Positions 1-64,000 of a stretch of DNA of 64,000 bases are shown one piece after another; within the stretch, counting starts at the first letter, position 1, and every line of letters begins with the position of its first letter. The position numbers and the translations under genes were made by a program. Under the pieces are notes generated by a model. That model had not been told where the DNA came from and did no database searches. It was given only the letters and a program-made list of their open reading frames with translations. The DNA comes from Candidatus Spyradenecus sp. (GTDB taxonomy: Bacteria; Verrucomicrobiota; Verrucomicrobiia; Opitutales; UBA953), in contig JAZSKX010000018.1 in NCBI GenBank assembly GCA_045535075.1, positions 1 through 64,000 of the forward strand, read 5' to 3'.

Positions 1-3000
1 AATCCCGCTTGTCCTCGTAAGTGTGCACAAGCGTCAGATTGCTCGGGCACGCCAGCGATTCCAAAAGATTTGTCCCCGAAAGGTAATTATAAGTAAACGT
101 TTTTTCCGCGCCGCCGTGAACAAAACACGCCGTCGCAAGCCGCCCCGTCGCTTCCGCGTAAGTCGTTCCCGTGGTCTGCTGAACGCTTCCGTTCTTCGCG
201 TAAACGTAGCCCGTGCCGCGCCCAAACGCGTCGCGAAGCTCCGTCACGGCGTGCGCGATTGCGTCGCCCGTGAGCGTTTCGCTTTCGACTTCGTTGTAAT
301 TATTATAAACATACACACGCATTCCCGAGGCGTCGACGCTTTGCGTGAGTTGCCCGAGGTGGTTGTAAACATGCGTTTCGCCGGGCGTGCCGTCGTTGTA
401 GGAAACGGAAACGAGTTCGCCCGTTTTTTCGGCGTAGGCGCGCGTCGCTTTCAGACGCGTTCCCGCCGAGACTTCCCGCGTCCAAGTCGTCGAAGCCAAG
501 CGATTAAATGCATCGTAGGCGTAATCAAGCTGCCCTTCGTCCGGATAAATCTTGCTGAGCAAAAGCCCCGTCGCCGCGTGGTAAATCCAGCGCGTTTCGT
601 CAGCCGCCAAGTCCTCACGGGAACGCGGATCGCCCTCAATCACTTCGCCCGCCACCCGGAAAAGCTTTTGCAACACGGGATTGTTCGCATCGTCAAAGCC
701 GAAAACAACCGGTTGCGTTCCCGTGCCGAACTCGGCAACGACGTTTCCGCGCAAGTCATACGCGTAGCAATGCGTTTTCCCGAGCGCATCCGTCACGCAA
801 GACGGCTTGCCGTGCGCGAGGTTGTAAGCGGTCGTCGTAACATTGCCCGCCGCATCGGTCGTTTTCGTCGTCCACCCGAGCACATTTTGCTCGACGACGC
901 TTGCGTTCCCGCGTCCGTCCGTCGTCGTAAGGACAATGCGCGCGTTTTCACCCGTGTAATATTGCCGCGCAAAGCTTGTTTGCGTTCCCGCGTGGTCGGT
1001 TTGCGAAACGGTAAAGCCGTCGCTCGTTGTTGTCTGCGCAAGGTTTGTCGCCGTCGGTAATTGTATTTTGGATACACGGATTCCGGGTTCTCCGAATTCC
1101 GTCCAACGCACGGTTGCGTTCCCGCGAACATCCGTCGAAACCGTCTTGCTCTCAAGCGTCGCGCTTTCGGAAACAAGCGTTGCAACCGAGCTCACAAGCG
1201 CCGTTCCCGCCGCGTTGTAACTTGTCGTGGAAACAAGGCGGTAAACGCCGTCGGTGCGGTTTTCAACCTGAGTCGAAGTTTCGGTGATACGCGAATTGAG
1301 CGCGTCCGGCTCGTCTGCAAGCGCAAGCGTGCGCTTCGTTTCGTTGCCGAACCCGTCGTATTCGTAAAGCGTCGGCGCAAGCGTTCCCGTCTGCGAGCGC
1401 ACAAGAAGCCCGCGCGCATCATAAGTATTTGTCGTGCAAATAAAATCACCCTGCGTGTTCGGCGTTTCCGAGCGTAACGTTTCGCCGAAACCGTTTTTGA
1501 TTTCACGGGAAAGAATCCCGGTCTCGCCGCTCGTTCCCGCAAGGCGGCGCGTCGTGCGAATGCCGTCGGAAACCGCATCAACGATGATTTCTTCGGAGCG
1601 GCGTGACGTTCCCGATTCGCGAAGCACAACGCCGCTTGCGTGCGTTTTCGTGATGCGCGTCGCCCCGGACGAAAGCGTCGCGGTTTGCGTGCGCGTTCCC
1701 GCGTCCGCATCTGTCGCATAGGCGTGCGCCGTTGTTCTGCCGAGCTCGTCCGTTTCGGAAACAATGCGACCGAGCGCATCCCAAACCGTTGATTTTTCGG
1801 TGAAATCAACCGAGTTTAATTTTAAAACTTCTCGCGTGATGCGCCCGGCGGCATCGCGCGTAAAGATTTGCGTGCGCTCGGGCTGCGTCGCCGTGAGCGA
1901 ACGCGTTTTTTCAGCAAGCTGTTGAGCCGTGTTGTAGGCGTATTCGGTGAGCACGCCGTCTTCGTCGCGCTCCCAAAGCGTGCCGCAGCACATCGACTCG
2001 CGCTCCGAAACACGACCGTTCCCGCGCGTGCGCTTCGTTTCTCGGTTTTGCGCATCGTATTCAAAATCCGAATACGAAACAAGACGCCACGTTCCCGCTG
2101 AATCGAGAAGAAATTTTTCGGCGCGAAGAACGTTCCCGTCCGAAGAAATAAACTTCACTTCGCGGGACGATTTCCCCGGAACGGCTTCACCCGCGATGCG
2201 CGTCTCCGCCGTTTGCGTGTAAAGCGCTCCGTAAAGCGACGTGCCCGCGTAAGCGTAATGCGTTTGCACGCCGAGCTTGTTTTGCGACATCTTCACGCGA
2301 CCGCGCGCGTAAACATTCCCGCAAGTGCCGATGAAGGTTTCTTCAACCTCAAGCTGAACATTCTCCGAGCCGAGCGCTGTCGTGCGACGCTCAACACGGC
2401 GAAATTCCGATTGTTCGCTATAAGTGTAATCGGTGCGTGAATACAAAATCGGCGAACCGTCGGACTTTTCCAGGGCGACCCGCGAATAGCTTAAATCGCT
2501 GTCGTTGCTCGCTTCGTTTTCATAATAAAAGTAAGTGATCTTGCGCCCGAGAACGTGCGGTTCGTAACGCGCGGAAACACGCCCGAAACGGTCGAAAGTC
2601 GTCTCGAAAACGCCGCCGTCGGGACGCGTTTCTTTGACAAGACGCCCGGACGTGTCGTAGCCGAACACCGTCGTTTCCGCGTAATTCGTGCCGTAGCCTT
2701 CCGTGCGCGAAACGCAGAGATTACCGAGCGCTTCGTCGATTTCAAAAACTTCCTCAACTGAACCTGCGGGAACGCTTTCTCCGGAACGTAATTGCTCGGT
2801 AATTACACGAAAACGCTTCTCCGAAATCGCCGTGCGCGTCCGCCGCGTAATGATTTCTTCCGAACCCGAACCGACGGAGGAATTCCAAACCCCGTTCTCA
2901 AACCAAAGCGAACGCGCAAACGCCGTCGCTCCCGCGCGCGAATCCCGCTCCGTTATCGTAAGCTTCTGCGGCTCCGTTCCCGAAAGCGCAACCGTAAAAC

Positions 3001-4294
3001 GCTTAAACGGCGTTCCCGTAGCCGCGTAAAACCCCGTTCCCGCATCCTTCTCCCCGACTTGACCCGGCAGGTAAAGCGCAATCTCATAGCCGCTTGCGGA
3101 AACGTTTTCAACACTCGCCAAACCGTCCCACAAATTCCAAACCTGACGCAAAACCCCGTCCTCATCACGCACAATGTCGAGGTAAGCGGCAAGTTCCGCT
3201 GCCGTCAGCACGTTCCCGTTTTTCGTTTTGTAGGAAAGAACTTCGCCCGTTGCCGCCGAAAACTCAATCGCACTTTTGTCCGTCTGCGTCAAAACTAACG
3301 CCGTTTTATCCGCAGTCCACGCAAGCCTCGAAGTCGTTTTCGATGAAGTTCCGATCGCAAAAAATCCGCCGCCCGAACCGTCGCAATACCACGACGTGTA
3401 GCTCCCGCCCGTAAAAATTTTTAACTGAGAATCCGATTCAATTCCGCCTTCGGGAAGCACAAGCCAGGTATTGAGCGGATGCGAAAACTCAAGTCGCGAC
3501 GGAGTCGAAATGTATTCATCAAAAACATACGATAAAATCTCAAGAGAACCTGCGGGAACGCCGCCCAATCCGCGAAACACGCCGAAATCCGTTTGCCAAT
3601 GCGCGTAATTCGCGTTCGCAACCAAGCGCGTATTGCGCCCCGAAGAACTCGACGAGCTCTCAGAAACCGCACGGGAACGCGCCGAAGTCTCTTTGAACTC
3701 GATCCCGCCAAGGTCCTCCGTCGGGCATTCGCAACGATTCTCATCCGGGAAAGGAGCGTTTTCGTCGGGAATAATATTACCGACATCTTCGCCCGGAAGC
3801 GAAAAATCCAAGCGCGCAACATTCAGCTCCGGCGGATTGTAATTAATATTAAAATACGAAAGAGAAACTTCGTAAACACCGGGAAAAAGCGAAACGGAAG
3901 CACTACCGCCCGTGTACGGACTGCCGCCTTGCACGCCGTAGTTGCCGCCGGGCGGAACCGTCACGGAACAATCGCAGATGCTCAGCGTCGCGCCGTCGTC
4001 CGCTCCCAGAAAAACCGTTCCCGCAATCGGATTGCCGTCCCAATTCTCCGGCTCGGGAACGCGGCGCTTCCAACGCCACTCGCACGAAAAACCCTTGTGC
4101 GGATCAATGCCGCTGATGTCCCCCGGAACCGGCGTAACAATCGCCGGCAAATACCCGACGTCCGGCGACAACGAACGCACCCGACCGACAAAACCGAAAC
4201 CCAATGAGATACTTCTCCGCTTCACAAAAACCTTTCTCCGATAATTTGACCAAACCCGAACGACCGCCGCCCGAAGCTCTGTCTTATATGCCAA
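1..4294 (-). CDS. RHS/YD-repeat protein, N-terminal ~1,400 aa; 3' end lies beyond the left edge of the window
   Basis: Not in the ORF track because no stop occurs inside the window. Manual minus-strand translation gives ...HWQTDFGVFRGLGGVPAGSLEI... near 3550-3600 and ...SLACPSNLTLVHTYEDKRD at the edge, with many YD/YDA motifs. The + strand shadow ORFs (23, 1061, 1868, 2213, 2555, 2792, 3593) all sit in the complementary frame. First upstream in-frame stop is at 4301-4303. Start uncertain (TTG 4294 or GTG 4225). Confidence 0.85.
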   Translation of the reverse strand, partial: MAYKTELRAAVVRVWSNYRRKVFVKRRSISLGFGFVGRVRSLSPDVGYLPAIVTPVPGDISGIDPHKGFSCEWRWKRRVPEPENWDGNPIAGTVFLGADDGATLSICDCSVTVPPGGNYGVQGGSPYTGGSASVSLFPGVYEVSLSYFNINYNPPELNVARLDFSLPGEDVGNIIPDENAPFPDENRCECPTEDLGGIEFKETSARSRAVSESSSSSSGRNTRLVANANYAHWQTDFGVFRGLGGVPAGSLEILSYVFDEYISTPSRLEFSHPLNTWLVLPEGGIESDSQLKIFTGGSYTSWYCDGSGGGFFAIGTSSKTTSRLAWTADKTALVLTQTDKSAIEFSAATGEVLSYKTKNGNVLTAAELAAYLDIVRDEDGVLRQVWNLWDGLASVENVSASGYEIALYLPGQVGEKDAGTGFYAATGTPFKRFTVALSGTEPQKLTITERDSRAGATAFARSLWFENGVWNSSVGSGSEEIITRRTRTAISEKRFRVITEQLRSGESVPAGSVEEVFEIDEALGNLCVSRTEGYGTNYAETTVFGYDTSGRLVKETRPDGGVFETTFDRFGRVSARYEPHVLGRKITYFYYENEASNDSDLSYSRVALEKSDGSPILYSRTDYTYSEQSEFRRVERRTTALGSENVQLEVEETFIGTCGNVYARGRVKMSQNKLGVQTHYAYAGTSLYGALYTQTAETRIAGEAVPGKSSREVKFISSDGNVLRAEKFLLDSAGTWRLVSYSDFEYDAQNRETKRTRGNGRVSERESMCCGTLWERDEDGVLTEYAYNTAQQLAEKTRSLTATQPERTQIFTRDAAGRITREVLKLNSVDFTEKSTVWDALGRIVSETDELGRTTAHAYATDADAGTRTQTATLSSGATRITKTHASGVVLRESGTSRRSEEIIVDAVSDGIRTTRRLAGTSGETGILSREIKNGFGETLRSETPNTQGDFICTTNTYDARGLLVRSQTGTLAPTLYEYDGFGNETKRTLALADEPDALNSRITETSTQVENRTDGVYRLVSTTSYNAAGTALVSSVATLVSESATLESKTVSTDVRGNATVRWTEFGEPGIRVSKIQLPTATNLAQTTTSDGFTVSQTDHAGTQTSFARQYYTGENARIVLTTTDGRGNASVVEQNVLGWTTKTTDAAGNVTTTAYNLAHGKPSCVTDALGKTHCYAYDLRGNVVAEFGTGTQPVVFGFDDANNPVLQKLFRVAGEVIEGDPRSREDLAADETRWIYHAATGLLLSKIYPDEGQLDYAYDAFNRLASTTWTREVSAGTRLKATRAYAEKTGELVSVSYNDGTPGETHVYNHLGQLTQSVDASGMRVYVYNNYNEVESETLTGDAIAHAVTELRDAFGRGTGYVYAKNGSVQQTTGTTYAEATGRLATACFVHGGAEKTFTYNYLSGTNLLESLACPSNLTLVHTYEDKRD

Positions 4295-63871: not shown

Positions 63872-63941
63872 AAAAAAACGTTCCCGCGAGAAATCCCGCG
63901 GGAACGCTAACACATGAATTAATATATCACTAAAAAATTGA

Positions 63942-64000
63942 TTAGCGACGACGGCGGCGCGTGCCGACGAGCGCAAGAGCACCCAAGCCCGCCAACAAAC
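63942..64000 (-). CDS. 3' end of a third PEP-CTERM family gene entering from the right edge
   Basis: Manual translation GLLAGLGALALVGTRRRRR-stop; followed by the same 17-mer and a homologous terminator as genes A and B. Confidence 0.85.
   Translation of the reverse strand, partial: LLAGLGALALVGTRRRRR

Follow-up and report, generated by a model that had tools for sequence, protein, structure and literature searches.

A genus-specific dispersed octamer of Candidatus Spyradenecus as a candidate self-DNA uptake sequence

According to the account of Helsem et al. (10.1101/2025.10.24.684340), uptake sequences have been described for two families only, the Neisseriaceae (DNA uptake sequence, DUS) and the Pasteurellaceae (uptake signal sequence, USS); they are words of 9-10 nt, occur in hundreds to thousands of copies that can occupy up to ~2% of the chromosome, concentrate in the core genome and are missing from genes of recent acquisition, and about half of them lie in terminators. 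The 2026 report on TerminatorNet describes such motifs in terminators for the same two families only (PMC13020248), and the receptor of the Pasteurellaceae USS has been predicted to be a minor pilin, ComN (bioRxiv 10.1101/2025.06.16.659825). Another kind of abundant word is HIP1 (GCGATCGC), a palindrome reported to be recognised by conserved methylases in cyanobacteria (PMC13756078). Here we analyse a stretch of 64,000 nucleotides, referred to throughout as the window, from Candidatus Spyradenecus sp. (GenBank assembly GCA_045535075.1, contig JAZSKX010000018.1, positions 1 to 64,000), across which an 8-mer, CGTTCCCG (on the other strand CGGGAACG), is dispersed. Its distribution suggests that it works like DUS and USS, and we treat it as a candidate for that class, not as a proven member.

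The window, which is the beginning of contig C5 (C5:1-64000) in a draft assembly of 18 contigs, 1,949,087 bp and 52% G+C (genome G000), contains 210 exact copies of the word on its two strands, compared with 6.34 +/- 2.66, and 15 at most, in 100 dinucleotide-preserving shuffles. The original prediction had counted 27 exact copies at positions 1-5,000, and the copy list gives exactly that number; this dense run corresponds to a large RHS/YD-repeat-like open reading frame (ORF), which carries 19 antisense and 5 sense copies. Genome-wide there are 5,159 copies (2,632 on the plus strand and 2,527 on the minus strand), that is, 1 per 378 bp or ~2.1% of all bases, where base composition predicts 69 and the reversed word, our control, occurs 77 times. 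No other 8-mer of the genome is as common, and the most frequent one without overlap to it, CGCCGCCG, has 1,228 copies. The word has CpG at both ends and differs from its own reverse complement, and is thus not a palindrome. The base that follows it is most often C (63% of copies) or T (25%), as had been noticed in the window, and the genome-wide logo of its flanks, g-CGTTCCCG-[C/T]-r, is at background beyond -1 and +3. Since the flanks drop to background within 2-3 bases, the copies are not units of a longer element. Single-mismatch variants are over-represented when the change falls at position 1, 2, 3 or 5, whereas 4, 7 and 8 are strict positions, and this cloud consists mostly of transitions (TGTTCCCG, 800 copies; CGCTCCCG, 857; CGTTTCCG, 608). 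The spacing between copies is near-exponential (mean 373, median 262, coefficient of variation 1.10), apart from a surplus of long empty stretches.

The word is a signal in DNA, not in protein. Genes were called by a dicodon model with open ends and start trimming, in agreement with Pfam across the window. Relative to these genes, 1,763 copies run in sense and 2,634 in antisense, 759 are intergenic and 3 lie across gene boundaries; 85% are thus intragenic, with 2.50 copies per kb of coding DNA and 3.96 per kb of intergenic DNA. Each of the six reading frames is used (VP, xFP and RSR in sense; xGT, GN and RER in antisense), which extends to the whole genome the observation, made in the window, that the word sits in several frames and is no protein motif. 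The comparison with a codon-aware null, proposed with the original prediction, gave a clear enrichment: 4,444 coding copies were observed, ~9-fold more than the 508 (189+319) that remain after shuffling synonymous codons and ~27-fold more than the 167 that remain after shuffling codon order. The shuffles, 30 of each kind, were made on an earlier gene set of longest ORFs, not on the dicodon-model genes, and the synonymous shuffle, done within genes, preserves every protein together with each gene's codon usage, which is itself already inflated by the word. The spelling of individual peptides points the same way. Ala-Gly-Thr (AGT) is written GCG-GGA-ACG in 1,020 of 1,247 instances (82%), where codon usage predicts 88, and Val-Pro is written GTT-CCC in 1,520 of 2,590, where 258 are expected; the word spelling is used for 392 of 496 Arg-Glu-Arg and 265 of 333 Arg-Ser-Arg tripeptides. 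The composition of the proteome itself is shifted by the word, as AGT occurs 1,247 times, ~4-5 times too often when compared with its five permutations (237-309), RER 496 times (permutations 202-212) and RSR 333 times (110-163).

Frames are used unequally, with 1,532 copies in antisense frame 1 and 1,211 in sense frame 2, as might be expected if the word stemmed from a protein motif or from codon bias, and some word pairs do lie within a repeated stretch of ~150 bp, as copies of a small mobile element (repetitive extragenic palindrome, REP, or miniature inverted-repeat transposable element, MITE) might do. Nevertheless, the use of six frames on both strands, the excess over a shuffle that keeps proteins and codon usage, the lack of a conserved flank and the location of most copies inside genes rather than between them leave such origins with next to no credence. 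Protein motif and codon bias were ruled out by the shuffles and the spelling tests, and a mobile element by the flat flanks, the ~150-bp repeat being a common PEP-CTERM-type 3' gene end with its terminator. Long shadow ORFs of 350-760 aa, unusual at 52% G+C, lie opposite real genes of the window at 4943-6556, 18762-19901, 43107-44654, 45976-48300 and 61232-63013; they misled longest-ORF gene calling, which put several genes on the wrong strand.

Neighbouring copies are arranged in a characteristic way. At gaps of up to 20 nt we found 171 convergent pairs (CGTTCCCG...CGGGAACG), with a peak of 53 at gap 12, compared with 29 divergent and 106 tandem pairs, and at gaps of up to 40 nt there are 216 convergent pairs, 156 of them intergenic and typically preceded by an A-run and followed by a T-run. 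With these flanks, the intergenic pairs resemble the hairpins of bidirectional terminators, and the three strongest terminator-like stems between positions 40001 and 60000 of the window are convergent word pairs. Inverted word pairs are thus predicted to form intrinsic terminators, in agreement with the inverted pairs in terminators that had been put forward from the window. A stretch of ~80-150 bp is repeated at window positions 51133-51285, 53059-53210, 63873-64025 and 50655-50770, with at least 30 partial copies in the genome and related copies in other members of the genus; it is the common 3' end of genes with a PEP-CTERM-like anchor (...PEPSAFGLLAGLGALALVGARRRR), followed by a similar word-pair terminator.

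The word is restricted to one genus, with close relatives titled Candidatus Spyradenecus sp. or 'Opitutales bacterium'. The 10-mer GCGTTCCCGC was found in 138-3,301 copies per genome in all 19 species genomes of the genus, but it did not exceed its reversed-word control in any of 62 genomes of four sister genera, and it stayed at control level, never above 66 copies, in the 193 genomes of other genera in a scan of the order (201 genomes, 41 families, 103 genera). The lineage specificity that had been proposed is therefore borne out, and the description of the genome as verrucomicrobial in type was roughly right; NCBI places Candidatus Spyradenecus in the Lentisphaerota, within the Planctomycetes-Verrucomicrobia-Chlamydiae (PVC) group. 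Inside the genus, 15 genomes are dense in the word and four are sparse: G001, G002 and G013 have 318-341 copies of the 10-mer and G014 has 138. A one-letter variant, CGTACCCG, was considered as a dialect of the word in genome G031 and rejected; it is locked to one frame on a single strand of one 40-kb stretch, and is hence part of a giant repetitive gene.

Both strands of the chromosome carry the word to a similar extent. Local GC skew along the draft contigs was used to assign the leading strand. Of the 4,974 copies that could be classified, 2,731 (54.9%) have the G-rich form CGGGAACG on that strand, as do 396 (54%) of the 734 between genes; of the coding bases, 59.6% are on the leading strand. 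This polarity has the size of the effect of composition and gene orientation and is not Chi- or KOPS-like, so the replichore comparison suggested at the outset gave no strong leading-strand bias. A polar signal of the kind of Chi or of the FtsK-orienting polar sequences (KOPS), read by RecBCD/AddAB or by FtsK, would also be an over-represented 8-mer, and a gene for a RecD2-type helicase lies inside the window. However, Chi and KOPS are strongly co-oriented with replication, whereas the bias seen here, overall and between genes, is no more than gene-strand bias and composition would yield, and the word is much denser than any described Chi; we consider this explanation very improbable.

Recently acquired DNA is poor in the word. 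There are 20 word-free stretches of at least 3 kb, and 18 gaps between copies exceed 3 kb where ~1.7 are expected. Two Mu-like prophages, five restriction-modification (R-M) islands and one helicase island, 88 kb together, have 66 copies (0.75 per kb) instead of the 233 expected from the genome mean of 2.65 per kb. The word-poor genes include a C5-methylase/NgoBV-type restriction island (40% G+C), three type I R-M loci, the large helicase island, and an MmeI-family enzyme that adjoins a reverse transcriptase. The prophages, at C16 ~183000-221500 and C8 ~20000-32500 (Mu Gam, MuB-like ATPase, Mu portal, Gp27, terminase), both carry ~0.57 copies per kb, five-fold under the genome and still far above chance, and one of them encodes two Dam-like methylases as well as a protein with an ADP-ribosyltransferase-exoenzyme-type domain. 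The MmeI-family restriction-methylase lies at C2:15911-22229, in low-G+C DNA, beside a reverse-transcriptase protein and a T5orf172-domain protein, in what looks like a defence island that is patchy in the genus. A native cluster, rpoB-rplL-rplJ-rplA at C5:244000-249700, is also nearly word-free (4 copies in 5.7 kb); here the drive may be resisted by strong constraint on proteins and codons.

DNA has also moved between species of the genus. Positions 43192-44658 of the window are 96.7% identical over 1,467 bp to contig C8 of genome G010 (locus L135), where identity elsewhere is ~75-79%, and the flanks have no match in G010 except for the word-pair terminator; the segment, which contains a gene for a beta-eliminating lyase or tryptophanase-like protein (43206-44654, plus strand), is a recent gene transfer between species. 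An abcF-like gene at 48379-50310 is also unusually near to G010 (88%). Gene order around pilB-pilT-pilB-pilC (window 25800-31800, genus loci L061-L072) is poorly kept between species, and window genes near this operon map to separate contigs in relatives.

A HIP1-like origin, in which a methyltransferase, a nicking enzyme or repair of the very-short-patch type would convert near-matches into the word with no part for import, could account for several of these features. The word has CpG at its ends and a transition-dominated cloud of near-matches, several DNA methyltransferases are encoded in G000, and 8-mers recognised by methylases are reported to reach similar densities in cyanobacteria (PMC13756078). 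However, the word is not palindromic, and none of its transition variants is depleted in the genome-wide counts of single mismatches, contrary to what very-short-patch repair predicts. We examined all Pfam-recognisable DNA methylases of G000, and searched the 19 genomes of the genus for the MmeI family and for C5 methylases. All methyltransferases found in G000 map to stretches poor in the word, to low-GC islands or to Mu-like prophages. The sites of type I enzymes are bipartite, and no PF01555 enzyme occurs in G000. The MmeI-family enzyme is present in 9 of the 19 genomes, including the sparse G001 and G014, and is missing from the dense G003, G006, G007, G010 and G016. C5 methylases are present in 10, with three in the sparse G014 and four in the sparse G002, and the dense G018, G004, G009, G006, G005, G011, G017 and G012 have none. 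Among these Pfam-recognisable families, neither the MmeI family nor the C5 methylases contain an enzyme that tracks word density across the genus, and the cognate methyltransferase that would have argued against an uptake signal did not come to light. We regard a HIP1-like origin as distinctly unlikely.

The sparse genomes show that the word can be lost. The nearest relatives of G000 are precisely the sparse G001, G002 and G013, with 86% identity in the pil operon, as compared with 79-80% for G018 and G004 and 73-77% for the remainder; in these three the same word has a density of ~1 per 2 kb, and in G014 it is almost absent. In an alignment of orthologs (eight blocks, 19.2 kb; G000, G001, G018, G004, G014 and G010), we followed the sites that are exact in at least two of three distant dense genomes; G000 still has the exact word at 24 of 36 of them, G001 at 9 of 35 and G014 at 2 of 23. 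The retention in G000 occurs at ~80% overall identity, and a uniform identity of 80% would, by our own arithmetic, leave an 8-mer intact ~17% of the time. Parsimony assigns 23 losses, 9 retentions and 1 gain to the G001 lineage, and 2 losses and 6 gains to that of G000, and the 23 sites lost in G001 look as eroded copies would, 12 being one mismatch and 9 two mismatches away from the word. Whatever force writes and keeps the word is thus at work in G000, but weak or lacking in G001 and G014, and the genus has seen two independent erosions, one in G001/G002/G013 and one in G014.

Genes for a type IV pilus, which had been recognised in the window as pilB/pilT/pilB/pilC, are confirmed by Pfam matches (Table 1). 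Elsewhere G000 encodes a secretin, the prepilin peptidase PilD, ComEC, DprA and seven prepilins (C5:99026-99451, C16:99151-99864, C2:45130-45813 and a cluster of four at C1:259100-262331), and the four-pilin cluster, the pilins of 237 and 227 aa, ComEC and DprA are found across the genus. Genes for a type IV pilus, a secretin, ComEC and DprA are widespread in bacteria that have no uptake sequence. Judged from the sequences, we think on balance, with moderate confidence, that CGTTCCCG is a genus-specific tag for self DNA of the DUS/USS kind, which would be the third independent uptake-sequence-like system. All sequence-level predictions of an uptake signal that could be tested held, and we infer a drive by uptake bias, with a pilin-type receptor as the reader of the word. 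A receptor of the type IV pilus/ComEC/DprA pathway, at the surface or in the periplasm, would bind double-stranded DNA bearing the word in either orientation, and fragments with the word would be imported and recombined more often. Repeated over time, this import bias could drive the word close to saturation wherever proteins tolerate it, and shift amino-acid usage as well. Inverted pairs would have been co-opted as terminators, newly acquired DNA would lack the word, and lineages whose reader stops discriminating would lose it by mutation.

Several observations count against an uptake signal. Any slow process working on resident DNA would likewise leave young islands depleted and the two strands symmetric, and, near site saturation, part of the losses counted by parsimony may be parallel gains in dense lineages. 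Only 15% of copies are intergenic, compared with about half of DUS/USS in terminators according to Helsem et al. (10.1101/2025.10.24.684340), and the organism is known from assemblies only. Among the machinery listed at the outset as worth seeking, ComEC and DprA were found, but a Pfam profile search of G000 detected no small ComEA-type helix-hairpin-helix (HHH) protein (the only strong HHH_3 match is a protein of 787 aa, in an open frame of 805 aa, so that no ComEA-type protein was recognised), and at E values up to 1 none of the seven prepilins matched ComP_DUS or, a weak T2SSG hit aside, any family of globular pilins. Dialects, for which a survey of related genomes had been suggested, did not appear either: the sparse G001, G002, G013 and G014 bear a weaker version of the same word, and 28-100 kb from one genome of each of the four sister genera contain no dispersed hyper-abundant word. 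Finally, the pathway seems untouched where the word has decayed. The pil operon is intact in the six genomes examined, sparse ones among them, and is kept open in all four sparse genomes, as are the four-pilin cluster, the 237-aa and 227-aa pilins, ComEC and DprA, apart from a contig break in G002 and an in-frame TGA in G014's copy of the 227-aa pilin. Tajima-type relative-rate counts on ComEC, DprA, the four clustered pilins and PilB/T/B/C showed no excess of change in G001 over G000; the largest chi-square, 4.45, concerned one pilin with one outgroup and was in the opposite direction. Since there is no relaxation in G001, nothing ties the decay of the word to the uptake pathway, and the tested genes, neither lost nor relaxed, leave the erosion unexplained. 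A search for the lost reader among these competence genes thus yielded none, as they are present and, with the exceptions named, open in the sparse lineages, and evolve at symmetric rates in G000 and G001. The TGA in the 227-aa prepilin homologue (G014:C88:4259-4915) could mark a pseudogene, a sequencing error or a recoding event. The 141-aa pilin has matches of 90-91% identity in three named records of metagenome-assembled genomes.

Because the sparse lineages retain all tested competence genes, the lost factor may lie outside the uptake pathway, and the word could instead be a binding or loading site for a machine resident on the chromosome, one that takes no part in import and is maintained by selection at many weak sites. 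A nucleoid-associated protein, a condensin or segregation system, a replication or repair factor, or a self-marker against a defence nuclease would be candidates, and such a machine would also fit the retention of orthologous sites in G000, far above neutral expectation, and the lack of the word in foreign DNA. However, selection on ~5,000 sites that respells 80% of compatible tripeptides and makes AGT ~4-5-fold too common is hard to conceive without drive, the words known to organise chromosomes (Chi, KOPS, matS, parS) are either polar or much less frequent, the spacing of copies is random rather than regular, and no candidate protein was identified. A resident machine is, in our judgement, unlikely, though more probable than the other alternatives. 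For the self-DNA uptake signal that was first proposed, the outcome is thus mixed, in that its sequence-level predictions held and a ComEA-type protein, a ComP-family pilin and dialects were not found. The features of the window are collected in Table 1.

Table 1. Copies of the word, word pairs and associated genes in the window
Feature	Position	Strand	Remarks
Dispersed word CGTTCCCG / CGGGAACG	1..64000	both	consensus g-CGTTCCCG-[C/T]-r; 210 window copies
Large RHS/YD-repeat-like ORF, >1,390 aa	2..4180	-	open at contig edge; label from repeat pattern in translation
Convergent word pair, gap 13	7764..7792	.	intergenic; pair scan
pilB-like type IV pilus/type II secretion system extension ATPase	26095..27816	+	T2SSE E 3.9e-139, MshEN
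pilT-like retraction ATPase	27858..28937	+	T2SSE E 1.5e-55, without MshEN domain
Second pilB-like ATPase	28953..30632	+	T2SSE E 1e-139
pilC-like platform protein	30657..31766	+	T2SSF E 1.5e-71
Zero-gap convergent pair CGTTCCCGCGGGAACG	31790..31805	.	A-run/T-run flanks, just 3' of pilC; bidirectional terminator-like hairpin
Convergent word pair, gap 11	40307..40333	.	A-run/T-run flanks, intergenic; pair scan
Convergent word pair, gap 10	44752..44777	.	A-run/T-run flanks, between convergent genes; pair scan
Convergent word pair, gap 11	45969..45995	.	intergenic; pair scan
Convergent word pair	51141..51172	-	14-pair stem then T-run; pair scan and stem search
Convergent word pair	53171..53202	+	14-pair stem then T-run; pair scan and stem search
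Convergent word pair	54897..54936	+	within 16-pair stem; pair scan and stem search
Convergent word pair, gap 12	63879..63906	.	intergenic; pair scan

If the word is an uptake signal, a third system, in an unrelated phylum and with no ComP-type receptor, would mean that tags for self DNA arise repeatedly in evolution, that uncultured gut bacteria of the PVC group undergo active transformation, and that a ready sequence tag is available for genetic tools in this group. The wider proposition, that uptake-sequence systems are not peculiar to two proteobacterial families and that a gut genus of the PVC group evolved its own tag, with a receptor unrelated to ComP, a record density and a drive that was switched off twice, seems to us evenly poised. 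Should the reader prove to lie outside the uptake pathway, the word would mark a drive of a new type, directed by sequence and acting on bacterial chromosomes. Two lineages have lost the word, one of which shares 86% identity with a dense genome, and this natural experiment makes the identity of the reader and the maintenance of the word directly testable by comparative genomics, and a comparison of the 15 dense with the 4 sparse genomes should name the reader. The near-saturation of compatible codons is, in addition, an unusually clear measure of a drive at the DNA level that overrides protein and codon preferences. In the literature, both 8-mers searched as text gave primer- or oligonucleotide-type sequences and no genomic repeat among the matches listed; titles and abstracts on uptake sequences in Verrucomicrobia and on Spyradenecus held nothing on this word or on uptake sequences of this group; and a search on Lentisphaerae and competence returned no Lentisphaerae paper among the matches listed.

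Of the known words with which CGTTCCCG can be compared, the Chi and KOPS octamers are likewise over-represented 8-mers read on DNA, and differ from it in that its polarity is only 55% and its density much higher. HIP1 is also a conserved 8-mer of comparable density that occurs inside genes, but CGTTCCCG is asymmetric and no methylase tracks it. Closer are the USS of the Pasteurellaceae, with a sequence unrelated to that of the word and with AT-rich flanking tracts that are lacking here, where no receptor candidate stands out among the seven prepilins; in both, a short strict core is flanked by softer positions and accompanied by a cloud of single mismatches and by terminator pairs, and both shift codon and peptide usage, an effect that Findlay and Redfield reportedly described for USS in 2009. 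The DUS of the Neisseriaceae, read by ComP, are also unrelated in sequence, have a core of 10-12 bp rather than 8-10, and belong to proteobacteria, whereas the host here is an uncultured gut member of the PVC group known from sequence alone, with 85% of copies intragenic, no pilin of the ComP_DUS family and no dialects found. The word is ~three times denser than the Neisseria DUS. In the remaining respects the two are alike: each is a short non-palindromic word that is specific to a clade, present in thousands of copies that make up ~2% of the genome, placed on both strands and in many frames inside genes, arranged in inverted pairs as (here predicted) terminators, and rare in recent acquisitions, in genomes that encode a type IV pilus, ComEC and DprA.

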